UHGV virus genome: UHGV-0061407
DNA length: 30,325 nt
Strand: one strand, 5' to 3'
Source of the DNA: a virus
In this document: positions 9,494 to 27,049 of the stretch, piece after piece
Layout of the letters: every line of letters starts with the position of its first letter
How positions within the stretch are numbered: position 1 is the first letter of the stretch
The notes under the pieces: generated by a model
Databases searched by the model: none
Told to the model about the DNA's origin: nothing
What the model saw: only the letters and a program-made list of their open reading frames with translations
Program-made: the position numbers and the translations under genes

Positions 9494-9554
9494 GCCTGCA
9501 TGAAACCATGCGGGCTTTTTTTTTGCCCAAAGAAAAAGCCCACCGAAGTGGGCC
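9494..9554. terminator. Back-to-back terminator hairpins (plus-strand hairpin + T9; minus-strand hairpin ggcccac-uucg-gugggc + U5)
   Basis: Plus: stem 9494-9502/9507-9515 (one G-U), loop aaac, T-run 9516-9524. Minus: stem 9538-9543/9548-9553 with UUCG-type loop, followed by T-run (complement of 9531-9537). Confidence 0.5.
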
Positions 9555-9927
9555 TTACAGCTATCATCATTTTTTATTAGGTGTGGTGCCGGGTGCCTCC
9601 CGGTAAGTCGCCGCCAGTCCACAGACGACTCGCAATGCGCAAAAAAACATATCAGACTGGCAATGCCCCTCCGCATAGGGGGATTCACCACACGGATAAT
9701 TTAGGATGTAGTCATAGGCGGCGTCAATAACTGACACTCTGTCAAAGGCACCATTACGATGCCTTTTGCACAGTGCTAATCACTGGCTCTAATAAGGGGC
9801 CAGAGCAAAGCGATTACCCCGGCTACCAGCACTCCATCAGCCAGGATTGACATCATTTTGCTGGTGAAGTCGATAGCAACCACCAGAAACAAAAGCACCC
9901 CAGCTGCGGCCCAGCGAAGTTTACCGA

Positions 9928-21581: not shown

Positions 21582-22130
21582 TTATTTCTCCATACACAAA
21601 GATTTATTCGCCACGACGCCCGGAGCTGCACACTCGCGGGCGTCACTCTTTTCTGGCAGACAATAAACACGAGAAATCAGGTTGAGAAACGTCATCAACG
21701 TGACCCGGAACTGGTAGGCGATATCATTCAGGCTTTGCCACTCGCCATGTGTAACCACCCCATCATCGATATATTCCCGATAGGCGCTGACCAACTCGCC
21801 AAGCTGACCCACCAGCTCCGCCAGCTTCAAACCAATCTCTTCGTTCTCGTCTTCATGAGCAGCGCCAGATACATGGATTCCGTTGTCGGTTTCACGCGAA
21901 AAAACATCGGCGATGTAGCTAACACCTGCGGCCTTCTGCAAGACCATTGCCCAGCCCATAGGGAATATCTGATCTCCACCAGCACGCAGTCGGTTAAAGA
22001 TCGCGTCCTGGGTGGTATCCAGAATCTCAGCGGCTTCGATATAGCCACCAGGTAACGCGGCTATTGTTTTACGGATCGCCGCCCCCAGCCATGCTGGCTG
22101 CTTTTCGACTTTCCAGTGTTGTTCAATCAT
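21582..22130 (-). CDS. CII-like phage regulatory protein (tentative)
   Basis: 182 aa ORF in the position of cII/early regulators between cro and the replication gene; family assignment from general resemblance only. Confidence 0.4.
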   Translation of the reverse strand: MIEQHWKVEKQPAWLGAAIRKTIAALPGGYIEAAEILDTTQDAIFNRLRAGGDQIFPMGWAMVLQKAAGVSYIADVFSRETDNGIHVSGAAHEDENEEIGLKLAELVGQLGELVSAYREYIDDGVVTHGEWQSLNDIAYQFRVTLMTFLNLISRVYCLPEKSDARECAAPGVVANKSLCMEK

Positions 22131-22196
22131 TGCTCTATACCTCTGTTGGTGTATGATTTCTAAATCAATGACCTATCGAAAAAAACGGGATAAAAA

Positions 22197-22520
22197 ATGC
22201 AGAACCCGCTCGCCAAACTTTCCCTGGATTACTGGTACAAAGTTATGATCCTGATAGGCGCTTTTATTTTTCTTCTCAACGGTGCCGGACTCCTTCCCGC
22301 GTACCCCACAGCAGTCACAGGCTTCATATCCTCTGGACTTTTCTTTTGGGGTCTTGGCGAATGGATGAATCACCCTTATCAGGAGGTGTTGACCTTGGAT
22401 CCCTTTAACCGTCCGACTGGCAAGATATCTGGGCATCCACGGAACGCCTGTCTTATTGGGAATATCTTTGATTTGATTGGATTCGTACTGATCATCACAG
22501 GGCTGATTAAACTCTTCTAA
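22197..22520 (+). CDS. Small membrane protein (3 predicted TM segments), opposite orientation to early-right operon
   Basis: 107 aa with three clean hydrophobic helices; an overlapping minus-strand ORF (22173..22625) has K/E/Q/N-rich composition expected for the antisense shadow of a membrane-protein gene. Confidence 0.4.
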   Translation: MQNPLAKLSLDYWYKVMILIGAFIFLLNGAGLLPAYPTAVTGFISSGLFFWGLGEWMNHPYQEVLTLDPFNRPTGKISGHPRNACLIGNIFDLIGFVLIITGLIKLF

Positions 22521-22669
22521 ATGCCAGCCAATCAGGGTAACCGTTCGGCCATCATGACTATGCTTTACCGAACCGGGTGCAAGATTTTCCAGCACTTGAA
22601 ACATATTCTTAAGCTTGTCCCCCACTGCTTACCCCCTACGTCTGTGGTTAACGCTGCTAAAACCAAATG

Positions 22670-22870
22670 TTATTGTTTGGAATAGATATCTGGTCGGAGA
22701 TCAAACTTCGTGATCGCACCGGATGTGCTTTTTTCCAGTTTTTTTGCCAGATCAAATCCGGCTTTTTTGTAGCCGTTAAAAACTAAACGCAGATAACCGG
22801 GTGTAGAGCCAACGTTTGCAGCTAAATTGCTTTGTTGCTCTTTAGTTAATGAATCCCAGAACTCTTTCAT
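22670..22870 (-). CDS. cro: Cro-like repressor (HTH)
   Basis: 66 aa from ATG 22870 with AGGAGG RBS lying inside operator O1; divergent from cI; HTH-like segment QSNLAANVGSTPGYLRLVFNG. Confidence 0.65.
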   Translation of the reverse strand: MKEFWDSLTKEQQSNLAANVGSTPGYLRLVFNGYKKAGFDLAKKLEKSTSGAITKFDLRPDIYSKQ

Positions 22871-22873
22871 ATA

Positions 22874-22940
22874 TGTACCTCCTGTGTACATATTACACGA
22901 AAGAAATGAACCTTCAAGGCACTTGTACCTAGGAGGTACA
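22874..22940. promoter_or_regulatory. Right operator region: two 17-bp operators tgtacc-N5-(g/t)gtaca between cro and cI
   Basis: O1 22874-22890 tgtacctcctgtgtaca; O2 22924-22940 tgtacctaggaggtaca (perfect palindromic half-sites). Confidence 0.5.
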
Positions 22941-22957
22941 CACGGTTTAATTTCAAT

Positions 22958-23632
22958 ATGAAAACAATCCAGGAAATCAGGCGGTTAAACGCCAGAAAAT
23001 TGCGTGATGGTGTTGGCGGTAATATTTACTTCGCCAATATGATTGATCGCGAGCCGACTCAAACCAGCCGGTTCATGGGAGATGGCGCCACTAAAAACAT
23101 CGGCGATGCAATGGCAAGGCACATTGAAAAGTGTTTTGACTTACCTACTGGGTGGTTAGATCAGGAACATCAAACCACTAATGTTGCTAAAACGCCCGAT
23201 GTCTCTGATACATATAGAAATATCACCATGGTTCCGGTTATATCCTGGGTACAAGCAGGAGCATGGACCGAAGTTGGCTATGCTGAGGTTGATTTGAATA
23301 GCACTGAAAACTATCCATGCCCTGTTCCTTGTGGGCCGATGACTTATATTCTTCGTGTTATTGGCGACTCAATGATCGACGAATATCGGCCCGGTGATAT
23401 GATTTTTGTTGATCCCGAAGTTCCAGCAGTGCATGGAGATGATGTGATCGCCTTAATGCACGATTCTGGTGAGACTACATTTAAACGGTTGATTGAAGAT
23501 GCAGGACAACGCTATCTAAAAGCACTTAACTCAAACTGGCCAGAACCTTACATCAAAATCAATGGTAATTGCTCTATCATTGGTACCGTAATTTTTTCCG
23601 GTAAACCAAGACGATACCGAACGAAAACATAA
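22958..23632 (+). CDS. cI: CI-type prophage repressor with C-terminal S24 (LexA-like) autopeptidase domain
   Basis: 224 aa; N-terminal HTH region, C-terminal S24 motifs (VIGDSM serine, FKRL lysine); divergent from cro. Confidence 0.85.
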   Translation: MKTIQEIRRLNARKLRDGVGGNIYFANMIDREPTQTSRFMGDGATKNIGDAMARHIEKCFDLPTGWLDQEHQTTNVAKTPDVSDTYRNITMVPVISWVQAGAWTEVGYAEVDLNSTENYPCPVPCGPMTYILRVIGDSMIDEYRPGDMIFVDPEVPAVHGDDVIALMHDSGETTFKRLIEDAGQRYLKALNSNWPEPYIKINGNCSIIGTVIFSGKPRRYRTKT

Positions 23633-23646
23633 CAAAGACTATTAAA

Positions 23647-23667
23647 CCTGCTTCGGCGGGTTTTTTT
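23647..23667 (+). terminator. Intrinsic terminator after cI
   Basis: Hairpin cctgc-ttcg-gcggg (UUCG loop, one G-U) followed by T7 (23661-23667). Confidence 0.5.
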
Positions 23668-23671
23668 ACAC

Positions 23672-23704
23672 TTGACAATGTACCTCAACGGTACATAATG
23701 TACC
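23672..23704 (+). promoter_or_regulatory. pL-like early-left promoter with embedded operator O3
   Basis: -35 TTGACA (23672-23677), 16-nt spacer, -10 CATAAT (23694-23699); operator tgtacctcaacggtaca (23679-23695) between -35 and -10; extra half-site tgtacc 23699-23704. Confidence 0.5.
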
Positions 23705-23805
23705 TAAAAGAAACAGTGAACAGGCAGGACGCCCACGAAGTAGCCGCCCGGGGCATATGAAGACCGGGATGATTCGCTAACAGATAAACCAAATAGGAAC
23801 AGAAC

Positions 23806-24039
23806 ATGGCGAGCAAAGGCATTGAAAACCTTATAAAGGACGCATTAGCAAACGGCTGTCATGTAGTCCGTAAAGCGCATCGCTTCGAGGTAAGCAAGAA
23901 AGGCCAAAAATCAATCACTCTTATTATTTGTGAAGATGGCACAGCTTACCGCGGAGATATTGACCTAACGATCGCCATAGCCATTCGCACTCAAAAAGAA
24001 ATGCGTAGCGTCCTCGGCCTGCCGGCTAAGGCAATTTAA
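23806..24039 (+). CDS. Hypothetical protein, first gene of early-left operon
   Basis: 77 aa, AGGA RBS; no Arg-rich N-like motif; function unknown. Confidence 0.5.
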   Translation: MASKGIENLIKDALANGCHVVRKAHRFEVSKKGQKSITLIICEDGTAYRGDIDLTIAIAIRTQKEMRSVLGLPAKAI

Positions 24040-24049
24040 TTACCTCAGG

Positions 24050-25130
24050 TGTCTTCGGGAGGGGTTACGGAGCTGGATTGACCACCAGCAACAGAAACTC
24101 ACCCGACATACAGCAGCCGTTTAGCCCACGGCGTCGGGGGTCCAGTAGACCTGGATTAATACTGTAGGGGTTGTGCCGGTTGGTCGCCGGCGCCCCGCCC
24201 GAAGATTCCTGATCGAACATGGCGAAAGCCGACAGCGTTGAAGGCGATTTTCTCGGTTTGCGCGCTAAACAATAGCGGGGGTGAAATCGGGGCGGAGAAG
24301 CAGAATCCGCGATGTCGGGACTTGATACTTCCGGCCATACCAACAAGCCGAATGATCGCGTAACGATCCTTTGCATCTGCCCCGGCGAGGTGGCGCCGCC
24401 GGACCGGGGTAGATGAATCGTACACAACATGAAAGCGCATTCCATCTTCATCCGTCGTGGGGACTGGTTTGTAACTGAAGGAGTGCGCTTCCAGTTGTGA
24501 ACGGCAATATTCACGACCGTTGTATGGCACATGCAGCGTTAGCAGCCCGGATGGTTCCCTTGAAGTTCCATGCGCTATCCGGACAACTGGAATGTGCAAG
24601 CTAAGTGTTTCAGGCACGACGTGCGCCCCACCAGCGCGGCGAAAAGGTGTGACCCCGGGAAGAGTCCGGGAAACAACAGGTAAGAGCACTCCCGCCACAC
24701 GAGGCTGAAACCCAAGCGCCATGTGGATGCGCCGAAAAGCTACAACGGGGCGTTGGTAGAAGATCGGAGTGCTCTTTCCGTTGTGGTAATTGCGGCTATG
24801 CGCACGTGACGAGCCAAACCCGTTCAATGAATGCGTTTCCGGGAAGTGTACGTCGCCGGTTATGGCTTAACCCGGCAGGTGGAGGCACCACCGCCACAAC
24901 CTAGTTAACTGTGCTGTGTGTAGTCTTGGCGGTTATCCAGTTTTCCACTATCCAAAGGAGGAAGAGGATAACGTTCTGATGGATAACCGCCCTTTTTACA
25001 CAATACACAAGAGCATCACCGGGCGACGGGCTCATTACCCAATCCACCCGGGCGGCGTCCTAACCGCAGGTGCTCTTCTGTGTTGTGTACGGAGAAATTC
25101 CCGGCGGTGGCAGCCGCCTTTCGAGAGGGT
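24050..25130. other. GC-rich, ORF-poor island with long-range perfect inverted repeats (candidate structured RNA or decayed gene)
   Basis: About 62-65% GC on sampled 60-nt lines versus about 45-52% in flanks; no convincing ORF on the operon strand; 10-bp and 12-bp perfect inverted repeats (see findings). Confidence 0.4.
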
Positions 25131-25136
25131 AAAACC

Positions 25137-25508
25137 ATGAGTAATGATCGCATGACAGTAGTGCCCGATTTCCTGGGTGAACTGGACGCCGGCGTATTCA
25201 TGAACAAGATTGCGGCGGCTCTTAATACCACCGCGCTCGGCGTTCTGAACAACGGCAACAAAGGCAAGGTTGTCCTCACCTTTGATTTTGAGCGTATGGG
25301 CAACTCTGTTGAAGAGAAGCGCGTCAAGATTAAGCACAAGCTGAACTACAGCACCCCAACTCCCCGCGGCAAAGCGTCGGAAGAGGACACCACCGAAACA
25401 CCAATGTGGGTTAACAAAGGCGGCAAGCTCACAATCCTGCAAGAGGATCAGGGGCAACTCTTCGGTATCACCGGCGCGGTGGACGGAAAGCTTAAAGCGG
25501 CTCAGTGA
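25137..25508 (+). CDS. Hypothetical protein, YfdP-like by size and position (unverified)
   Basis: 123 aa from ATG 25137 (RBS GAGAGGG); precedes the YfdQ-like and YfdR-like ORFs as in CPS-53-type prophages (from memory). Confidence 0.5.
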   Translation: MSNDRMTVVPDFLGELDAGVFMNKIAAALNTTALGVLNNGNKGKVVLTFDFERMGNSVEEKRVKIKHKLNYSTPTPRGKASEEDTTETPMWVNKGGKLTILQEDQGQLFGITGAVDGKLKAAQ

Positions 25509-25564
25509 ACCGCACGTACAAATTCACTGATACCACTTCGCTAATCAGTTAATAAGGAATTTTT

Positions 25565-26392
25565 ATGTCTCAGTTAGACAGCGGTACTTTTCAGCAGGTT
25601 AAAGATCTGGTTCTTTCCGGTTATCACCTGAACGATATCCACGGCCTGGCCTGTCCGACCGCCCTGCTACCGCAGAATACCAGCGTTGAAAGCCTGGAGC
25701 GTTTTGCTCTTGAGCGTTTCCGTTTCCGCGGTGCCATGGACACGACCAGCATTGATGATTTCGTTCGCTATTCTGTCGCTTATGCCCGGGAAGAAGAAAA
25801 AGCACGTTGCTTTATTGATGCCGATAACATGCTGGCTCGTTCTATCTTCAATATCGGTACGTTGGACAACCTAGGCCACGCTGATAACGTCGCCTCGATC
25901 AAGCTTAAGAAGACAGCGCCCTTCCGCGCGTTACTGGCGATCAACGGCGATCACCTTAATCAGAAGCAAATAGCCGAATGGCTCGAAGACTGGAGTGACT
26001 ATCTCACTGCGTTCGATTCCGACGGTCAGACAATGAAAAATGCACAGGCAGCGCAGGCGGTTCGCCGTGTCACTATCCAGCAAACTAATGCCGCCGATCA
26101 TGAAGACGGTGATTTCAGCGGCAAAAAATCGCTGATGCAAAGTATCGAAGCCAGCAGTAAAGATGTTATGCCGGTCGCGTTTGAGTTTAAGTGTGTACCC
26201 TATGAAGGCCTGGGCGAACGTCGTTTCAGTCTTCGCAATAGCCTGCTCAAAAGTAGCGATCCGGTATTCGTTCTGCGTATTGTCCAGCTGGAAGCCCAGG
26301 AAGAAGCGATCGCCAATGAGTTCCGAGATCTGCTGATTGGCAAGTTCGACGGCAAGCCGGTAGAAACCTTTATCGGCAACTTCAAAGCCTGA
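25565..26392 (+). CDS. Hypothetical protein, YfdQ-like (DUF2303-type) by size and synteny (unverified)
   Basis: 275 aa ORF; assignment by length and neighbourhood, not by recognised motif. Confidence 0.5.
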   Translation: MSQLDSGTFQQVKDLVLSGYHLNDIHGLACPTALLPQNTSVESLERFALERFRFRGAMDTTSIDDFVRYSVAYAREEEKARCFIDADNMLARSIFNIGTLDNLGHADNVASIKLKKTAPFRALLAINGDHLNQKQIAEWLEDWSDYLTAFDSDGQTMKNAQAAQAVRRVTIQQTNAADHEDGDFSGKKSLMQSIEASSKDVMPVAFEFKCVPYEGLGERRFSLRNSLLKSSDPVFVLRIVQLEAQEEAIANEFRDLLIGKFDGKPVETFIGNFKA

Positions 26393-26521
26393 TTGCTCTC
26401 CATTAAATCCCCGGCGCCGCGGGGATTTATTAAAGCGTAATCCTGCAATTAATCGCCACATGGCGAGGGATTCCTACACCCAAAAAACAGCGCTGTGCAG
26501 GCGTAAAGTATGGAGAAAAAA

Positions 26522-27049
26522 ATGAGCTTTATTCAAACCTTTTCAGGCAAACATTTTAACTATCTCGACATCCAGCAAGACGCCATCGAGATCGAAGATA
26601 TTGCTAATGCACTCTCGAACATCTGCCGCTTTGCCGGTCACCTGCCTGAGTTCTATAGCGTCGGCCAGCACAGCGTTTTAACAAGCCAACTGGTACCTCA
26701 AGAATTTGCGCTTGAAGCGCTGCTGCATGACGCCGCCGAGGCATATTTGCAGGATATCCCTGCCCCATTAAAACGCCTTCTTCCTGACTACCGCGCAATT
26801 GAAGATCAGGTTGATGCAGCTATTCGCCAAAAATTCGGCCTGCCGGCTGAGCAGCACCCGACCGTTAAATATGCCGACCTGGTGATGCTGGCCAGCGAAC
26901 GTCGCGACTTTGAGATCGACGACGGCACCCACTGGCCGATGCTCGACGGCGTCATTCCTACCGACCAGTTTTTGATTAACCCCGTCCGCCCGGGCCAGTC
27001 TTACGGCATGTTCATGAACCGCTTTAACCAACTGATGGAGCGGCGCTAA
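26522..27049 (+). CDS. HD-domain phosphohydrolase (YfdR-like)
   Basis: 175 aa from ATG 26522 (GGAG RBS); His...His-Asp pattern (GQHSV...LLHDAAEAYLQD) consistent with the HD superfamily. Confidence 0.6.
   Translation: MSFIQTFSGKHFNYLDIQQDAIEIEDIANALSNICRFAGHLPEFYSVGQHSVLTSQLVPQEFALEALLHDAAEAYLQDIPAPLKRLLPDYRAIEDQVDAAIRQKFGLPAEQHPTVKYADLVMLASERRDFEIDDGTHWPMLDGVIPTDQFLINPVRPGQSYGMFMNRFNQLMERR

Follow-up and report, generated by a model that had tools for sequence, protein, structure and literature searches.

Predicted operators of an SfV/e14-type immunity region in a lambdoid Klebsiella prophage

Which sequence is recognised by the repressor of this prophage, and does that sequence set its immunity specificity? 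The locus lies in a stretch of 30,325 bp (one strand) from virus genome UHGV-0061407, referred to here as the window. A first-pass annotation had described a family of sites with shared half-sites around cI and cro genes and had put them forward as a concrete, testable repressor recognition sequence. Comparative analysis upholds that proposal, with the motif written as TGTAYC-N5-GRTACA and binding of the repressor predicted. The region is an ordinary lambdoid immunity region, and the prophage adds a Klebsiella member to the SfV/e14 group. The operator map reveals no new kind of mechanism; what the comparison adds is a five-site map, a consensus and co-variation with the repressor for a very common enterobacterial immunity group, which includes the Shigella serotype-converting phages SfV and SfIV and the e14 prophage of E. 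coli K-12.

Five sites and the promoters that they overlap

When the sequence from 22000 to 24600 was re-read, the coordinates given earlier for O1, O2, O3 and a further TGTACC at 23699-23704 all proved exact. The three 17-bp sites with common half-sites are present as described, but they belong to a total of five, one of which (OM) had been missed and another (O4) seen only as a half-site:

22874-22890, no strand assigned: O1 operator, TGTACC-TCCTG-TGTACA (TGTACCTCCTGTGTACA), one mismatch, one arm imperfect
22907-22923, no strand assigned: OM, a weak middle operator, TGAACC-TTCAA-GGCACT (TGAACCTTCAAGGCACT), three mismatches
22924-22940, no strand assigned: O2 operator, perfect palindrome TGTACC-TAGGA-GGTACA (TGTACCTAGGAGGTACA)
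23679-23695, no strand assigned: O3 operator, perfect palindrome TGTACC-TCAAC-GGTACA (TGTACCTCAACGGTACA)
23699-23715, no strand assigned: O4 operator, TGTACC-TAAAA-GAAACA (TGTACCTAAAAGAAACA), two mismatches

With up to two mismatches allowed, TGTACC-N5-GGTACA is found four times in the window against 0.48 expected; all four matches fall within one 840-bp region, and this number was reached in none of 100 shuffles. The hexamer TGTACC occurs 18 times (7.7 expected), operator arms making up six of the 18, and in an unbiased repeat search of 22600-24100 the operator sites formed the top families of both direct and inverted repeats. Since 23699-23715 is among the matches with up to two mismatches, the TGTACC formerly taken for an extra half-site is really the left arm of a degenerate full site, O4, whose centre lies 20 bp from that of O3. 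OM is not significant from the window alone, across which 11 matches occur at three mismatches.

The genes and transcription signals around these sites are as follows:

22670-22870, minus strand: cro-like gene (ORF), 66 aa, YdaS/Cro-type HTH, product 82% identical to SfV Cro
22891-22896, minus strand: putative PR -10, TAATAT, in a conserved block (CATATTAC/CATTATGC), 16 nt from the TTGAAG -35
22913-22918, minus strand: putative PR -35, TTGAAG, inside the OM spacer
22923-22928, plus strand: putative PRM -35, TTGTAC, weak, overlapped by O2 and adjoined by OM
22946-22951, plus strand: putative PRM -10, TTTAAT, 17 nt from the -35; relatives share T(T/C/G)TAAT 6 nt ahead of the ATG
22958-23632, plus strand: cI repressor gene, 224 aa, N-terminal HTH domain and C-terminal S24 autocleavage domain
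23646-23667, plus strand: intrinsic terminator after cI, ACCTGC-TTCG-GCGGGT followed by T7, conserved in relatives
23672-23699, plus strand: pL-like early-left promoter, TTGACA-16-CATAAT, 11/12 match, both hexamers invariant in relatives

The start codon of cro was picked from conservation among relatives, and the match of its product to the Pfam family YdaS_toxin (E 1.1e-5) is below the cutoff. O1 had been said to overlap both the ribosome-binding site and the start of cro. The former is indeed covered, the Shine-Dalgarno GGAGG lying inside O1 (minus strand, 22878-22882), but the start codon is clear of the site, which ends 3 nt before the ATG (22870). Only in a longer, mechanically called cro ORF does O1 meet a start codon, and some relatives (L006) have that upstream ATG in another frame. 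Beyond cI, whose terminator has an SfV counterpart annotated as a "putative rho-independent terminator", the earlier placement of O3 between TTGACA (23672-23677) and CATAAT (23694-23699) is confirmed. The pL spacer is occupied by O3, and the last base of the -10 falls within O4 together with the probable transcription start.

The hexamers of PR and PRM were read from conservation among relatives. PR would start near 22884, and O1 would then span roughly -5 to +12 together with the cro Shine-Dalgarno. PRM would start at about 22958, on the first base of the cI ATG; as no conserved Shine-Dalgarno precedes cI, its mRNA would be leaderless, as in lambda. The centre of OM would lie about 43 bp upstream of that start.

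Several features outside the operators were also observed. A conserved candidate structured RNA of about 70 nt (23707-23786, plus strand) begins at the probable pL transcription start. Copies 84-98% identical to it are present in 51 phage records that differ widely in immunity type, among them ST64B, SfII, phiNP, ZF40, SPN3UB, mEp237, mEp460 and YeP phages, and compensatory changes occur at three pairs of its inner stem. At neither the gathering threshold nor E up to 1 did this element match an Rfam family; it showed no primary sequence similarity to HK022 putL, and a covariance model found no second copy in the window. Its place just downstream of the early-left promoter in N-less phages recalls HK022 putL, and it is a possible cis-acting antiterminator of the put kind. 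A stretch of about 1 kb beyond the first pL gene (24040-25080) is richer in GC (0.55-0.60) than the immunity region (0.40-0.47); it yielded no convincing plus-strand ORF and no Rfam match at E up to 1, and parts of it recur without annotation in Klebsiella phages. It is followed by what we take to be an early-left operon of YfdP/YfdQ/YfdR-like genes (25080-27049, plus strand), yfdP being annotated in the E. coli C4 relative. Within it, the ORF at 25565-26392 (plus strand) begins MSQLDSGTFQQVKD, and that at 26510-27049 (plus strand) presumably encodes an HD-domain 5'-nucleotidase look-alike. At 9525-9722 (minus strand), inside the prophage, there is a full-length match to the Rfam sRNA STnc100 (99.8 bits, E 7e-21). 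A yfdP/yfdQ/yfdR gene cluster is described in PMC12315714, where the ST64B/phiNP-type left arm is also discussed; the early-left operon of the window is taken to be a left arm of that type.

Repressor domains, conservation of the sites and change of the half-site with the repressor

The C-terminal domain of CI is a Peptidase_S24 domain (PF00717; E 1.4e-25, 89.7 bits against a cutoff of 23.3), and the C-terminal half is homologous to the lambda CI CTD structures 1f39 and 1kca (E about 6e-10). The protein carries VQAG/AW, with Ala-Gly in the linker, GDSM, and TFKRL, which aligns with TFKKL of lambda CI. The Ser/Lys dyad of the S24 type and an Ala-Gly cleavage site are present, and self-cleavage is predicted. 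The N-terminal 75 residues on their own gave no Pfam match. However, a profile of 22 CI NTDs matches the phage repressor 5d50 over the full domain (E 5.6e-9), which settles the question of an N-terminal HTH; the same profile matches the phage CI NTDs 7nkv and 8c3l at about 2e-5, and distant members of the CI family match Pfam HTH_3 at 7e-5. CI combines the S24 domain, the dyad with its Ala-Gly site and the N-terminal HTH of autocleavable repressors of the lambda CI/LexA type. A single-sequence AlphaFold model of CI had a pLDDT of 30 and was discarded. The recognition helix was assigned from homology and the HTH pattern and is hence putative; it reads REPTQTSRFMG and is identical in SfV CI, to which the whole protein is 86% identical.

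Conservation of the sites was examined by scanning for CI in one genome per species. This gave 57 loci, from which 23 non-redundant immunity regions were compared, with CI identities of 54% to 99%; they came from Klebsiella, Pseudocitrobacter, Trabulsiella, Atlantibacter, Leclercia, Enterobacter, Kluyvera, Pantoea, Escherichia, Phytobacter, Limnobaculum, Rahnella, Serratia, Proteus, Entomohabitans and Salinicola. Across these regions the sites stand at fixed offsets from the cI ATG: O1 at -84, OM at -51, O2 at -34, O3 at +721 and O4 at +741. Salinicola is the exception, with OR sites at about -87, -53 and -37 and OL-type sites farther downstream of cI. The centre-to-centre distances of 33 bp (O1 to OM), 17 bp (OM to O2) and 20 bp (O3 to O4) are constant in the Enterobacterales. 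In Salinicola (L024 and L025), the OL-type TGTACC sites were observed at about +1596 and +1815 from the cI start, some 0.9-1.1 kb farther downstream of cI than in the Enterobacterales, which points to extra DNA between cI and the early-left promoter.

Within the sites, it is the arms that are conserved. Over the 23 loci, information content averages 1.8 bits per column in the arms of O2 and O3 and 0.36 bits in their spacers, with 19 distinct spacers at O2 and 20 at O3. OM reads TGAACC-N5-G(G/A)TACT in nearly all relatives, with two to four mismatches to the motif, and at O4 the left arm is invariant, the right arm being G(A/C/G)AAC(A/G) in most relatives. Two spacers are constrained in part by signals on the other strand: the first three bases of the O1 spacer are fixed as TCC because of the cro Shine-Dalgarno, and CAAG is conserved in the OM spacer because of the TTG of the PR -35. 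The resulting consensus, TGTA(C/T)C-N5-G(G/A)TACA, can be regarded as a comparatively validated recognition sequence, as predicted from these alignments.

A wider sample was taken from viral contigs chosen only by the exact pL/OL pattern, which was matched by at least 120, 68 of them with enough upstream sequence. Among the matches listed, a perfect O2 lies 753-757 bp upstream of the pL/OL pattern in 66 of the 68 contigs, OM and O1 are in register in all 68, and a helix of the REPTQTSR type is encoded by 66. The operator is common to the 23 regions and, among the matches listed, to the 68 contigs.

In more distant relatives of CI the 6-N5-6 layout is retained and the arms differ, as follows:

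Window, SfV, Proteus and Salinicola: putative CI helix EPTQ(T/V/A)SR, sites TGTACC-N5-GGTACA
Kushneria (CI 45% identical): putative CI helix EPPAASR, sites TTAACC-N5-GGTTAA, at the OM position and downstream of cI
Acinetobacter: putative CI helix GQSQTSQ, sites ATTACC-N5-GGTAAT
Uncultured gammaproteobacterium (L037): putative CI helix VSYLSH, sites TTTAGC-N5-GCTAAA

A search of the Kushneria immunity region for sites of the TGTACC type found none. The putative recognition helix of Cro is GYLRLV/AYLRQV wherever TGTACC is retained and is altered in Acinetobacter and the uncultured gammaproteobacterium. A natural swap is provided by Klebsiella phage Kp4866-6 (L062), to which the window is 97% identical over 72% of its first 25 kb. 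The homology ends at about 21676 and resumes at 23713; in between, Kp4866-6 has a different repressor, and CTAAA-N4-TTTAG palindromes surround its pL. With another repressor come other palindromes, so the motif follows the repressor and not the host or the backbone. As for the form of the exchange, 21676-23712 appears as a clean mosaic cassette replacement between phages otherwise 92-99% identical; one of its junctions falls within the region of the ymfL-like gene, and the second coincides exactly with the beginning of the conserved RNA element.

The view that these operators define the immunity specificity needs qualification: the half-site does co-vary with the recognition helix, but the motif is common to the SfV/SfIV/e14 group and not unique to this prophage. 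The five-site map can accordingly be used to assign prophages to the SfV/e14 immunity group from sequence alone. That the sites are the CI/Cro operators of a lambdoid immunity region, as first proposed, is the reading favoured by the flanking S24 repressor and HTH genes, the overlap with promoters, the invariant arms, the co-variation and the natural swap, with binding itself predicted. The analysis establishes the existence and placement of the sites, how far they are conserved, how they co-vary with the repressor, and which domains the repressor has.

The predicted switch and other readings of the sites

We consider it highly probable that this region serves a lambdoid Klebsiella prophage as an immunity switch of the SfV/e14 type, in which CI dimers, and probably Cro, recognise the 17-bp sites. 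The HTH domain of CI (probably also that of Cro) would read TGTA(C/T)C-N5-G(G/A)TACA as a dimer. At O1, bound protein would cover the PR start and the cro ribosome-binding site, and lytic rightward transcription would be blocked. At OM it would cover the PR -35 and adjoin the weak PRM -35, in the activating position of lambda OR2; lambda CI at OR2 activates PRM from about 43 bp upstream of the cI start. O2 covers the putative PRM -35 and spacer, like lambda OR3, and cI would be turned off there at high repressor or with Cro bound. O3 and O4 would cover the pL spacer and start; their separation of 20 bp would put both on one face of the helix. Self-cleavage of CI at Ala-Gly, stimulated by RecA, would then release all of these promoters. 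In this scheme we infer the exact promoter starts, the protein that would fill each site first, any cooperativity and the activation of PRM.

A chance origin of the sites is ruled out by the shuffles and by the positional conservation. The repeats could instead be by-products of promoter and ribosome-binding signals, with the likeness of O1 and O2 reflecting a AGGAGGTACA-like Shine-Dalgarno and the conservation reflecting -35 and -10 elements. O1 does hold the cro Shine-Dalgarno, the O2 spacer of the window also reads AGGAGG, and of the two -35 hexamers, that of PR lies in the OM spacer and that of PRM is overlapped by O2. However, AGGAGG is not conserved in O2, where 19 spacers are seen in 23 loci, and this unconstrained spacer rules out a Shine-Dalgarno artefact for O1 and O2. 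Moreover, the arms are conserved outside the hexamers (as with the right arm of O2 and the two arms of O3 in the pL spacer), the same motif is present at two promoter regions 755 bp apart, and the arms change along with the repressor helix, all of which makes a by-product origin extremely improbable. It is also very improbable that the sites are bound by a protein other than CI or Cro, such as host LexA or another phage regulator. Such a binder would accord with the SOS-inducibility of e14-type prophages, whose genes the literature only infers to respond to oxidative or SOS stress, and binding by CI and Cro is itself a prediction. Against it, the motif travels with the cI/cro cassette and not with the backbone or host, and it co-varies with the helices of both CI and Cro. 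LexA in particular is ruled out, as no LexA box (CTGT-N8-ACAG, up to one mismatch) occurs in 22600-24100, and the geometry of the sites, TGT-N11-ACA, is unlike that box.

A different kind of alternative, which we regard as possible but the less likely reading, accepts the sites as true CI/Cro operators and gives them a logic other than that of lambda. O2 would be the primary CI site and cI would be only negatively autoregulated, with OM either inactive or part of a composite site with O2, to whose four arms a higher-order oligomer would bind. Nearly all relatives have a perfect O2, against two to four mismatches in OM, the two sites adjoin in a strictly fixed 17-bp register, and the CI NTD is homologous to the 5d50 repressor rather than to lambda CI. 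On the other hand, the position of OM relative to the weak PRM -35 fits the geometry of lambda OR2, and the CTD is homologous to that of lambda CI, the domain that mediates pairwise cooperativity in lambda. More speculatively, and in our judgement rather unlikely, the OR geometry, constant across genera with no indel, might reflect a non-lambda binding mode of CI (for example, a four-arm composite of OM and O2, either recognised by a higher-order oligomer or with mutually exclusive occupancy) combined with a rule NNNACC-N5-GGTNNN, in which the outer triplet is set by the recognition helix. If true, that mode and rule would amount to a simple code by which sequence alone would predict the immunity group.

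Comparison with SfV, e14 and lambda

The region is about 78% identical in DNA sequence to the cI-cro regions of SfV, SfIV, Escherichia phages PhiR29 and PhiR49 and E. coli ymfK/ymfT (e14-type), and the cassette is of the SfV/SfIV/e14 immunity type (cI/cro; YmfK=CohE, YmfT=CroE). With SfV it shares a homologous CI with an identical helix and the same half-sites at the same positions; in SfV, SfIV and e14 alike, five sites stand at the offsets seen in the window, with the same pL and terminator. The GenBank record of SfV labels 26377-26445 a "putative operator region", which runs from O1 to O2 plus 1 nt on each side; the interval bounds the two sites so exactly that its depositors evidently saw the same repeats, although the OL sites are unannotated in that record. 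Every spacer differs between SfV and the window, and OM is weaker in the window (GGCACT). Unlike SfV, the window has a Klebsiella host, and the rest of the prophage has a Kp4866-6-like backbone.

The paper on SfIV describes the SfV/SfIV/e14 group as being without N, cII and cIII. The literature search found no experimental operator map for any member of that group and no binding or transcription data for CI repressors of the SfV/e14 family. In Reg-seq, a massively parallel reporter study, no consistent footprints were reported for the YmfT iModulon, and PMC9638921 concerns RacR and not e14.

Likeness to the 5d50 repressor is confined to the N-terminal domain of the window CI. We take 5d50 to be the Rep protein of Salmonella phage SPC32H, which is inactivated by an antirepressor; presumably it has no S24 domain and is removed by the antirepressor instead of by self-cleavage.

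The closest model for the arrangement as a whole is lambda. Both have divergent cI and cro genes and a tripartite OR of 17-bp pseudo-palindromes; in the window, O1, OM and O2 lie between the divergent PR and PRM and overlap both, as these promoters are read here. Both have OL at a same-strand promoter downstream of cI, an apparently leaderless cI, and a CI with a homologous CTD, an Ala-Gly cleavage site and a Ser/Lys dyad. The middle site lies about 43 bp upstream of the PRM start in each, taking the probable start in the window. The differences begin with the operator sequence itself and with the position of O1 over the probable transcription start and the cro Shine-Dalgarno. The CI NTD is not detectably lambda-like by sequence, the distance from OL to OR is only about 755 bp, unlike that in lambda, and OL has two sites where lambda has three. 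Within OR, the lambda spacing of 24 and 23 bp is replaced by 33 and 17 bp, with OM and O2 adjoining without a gap; at 17 bp against the 23-24 bp of lambda, pairwise cooperativity of the lambda style may not apply to these two sites. Finally, the best palindrome of the window, O2, occupies the place of lambda's weakest site.
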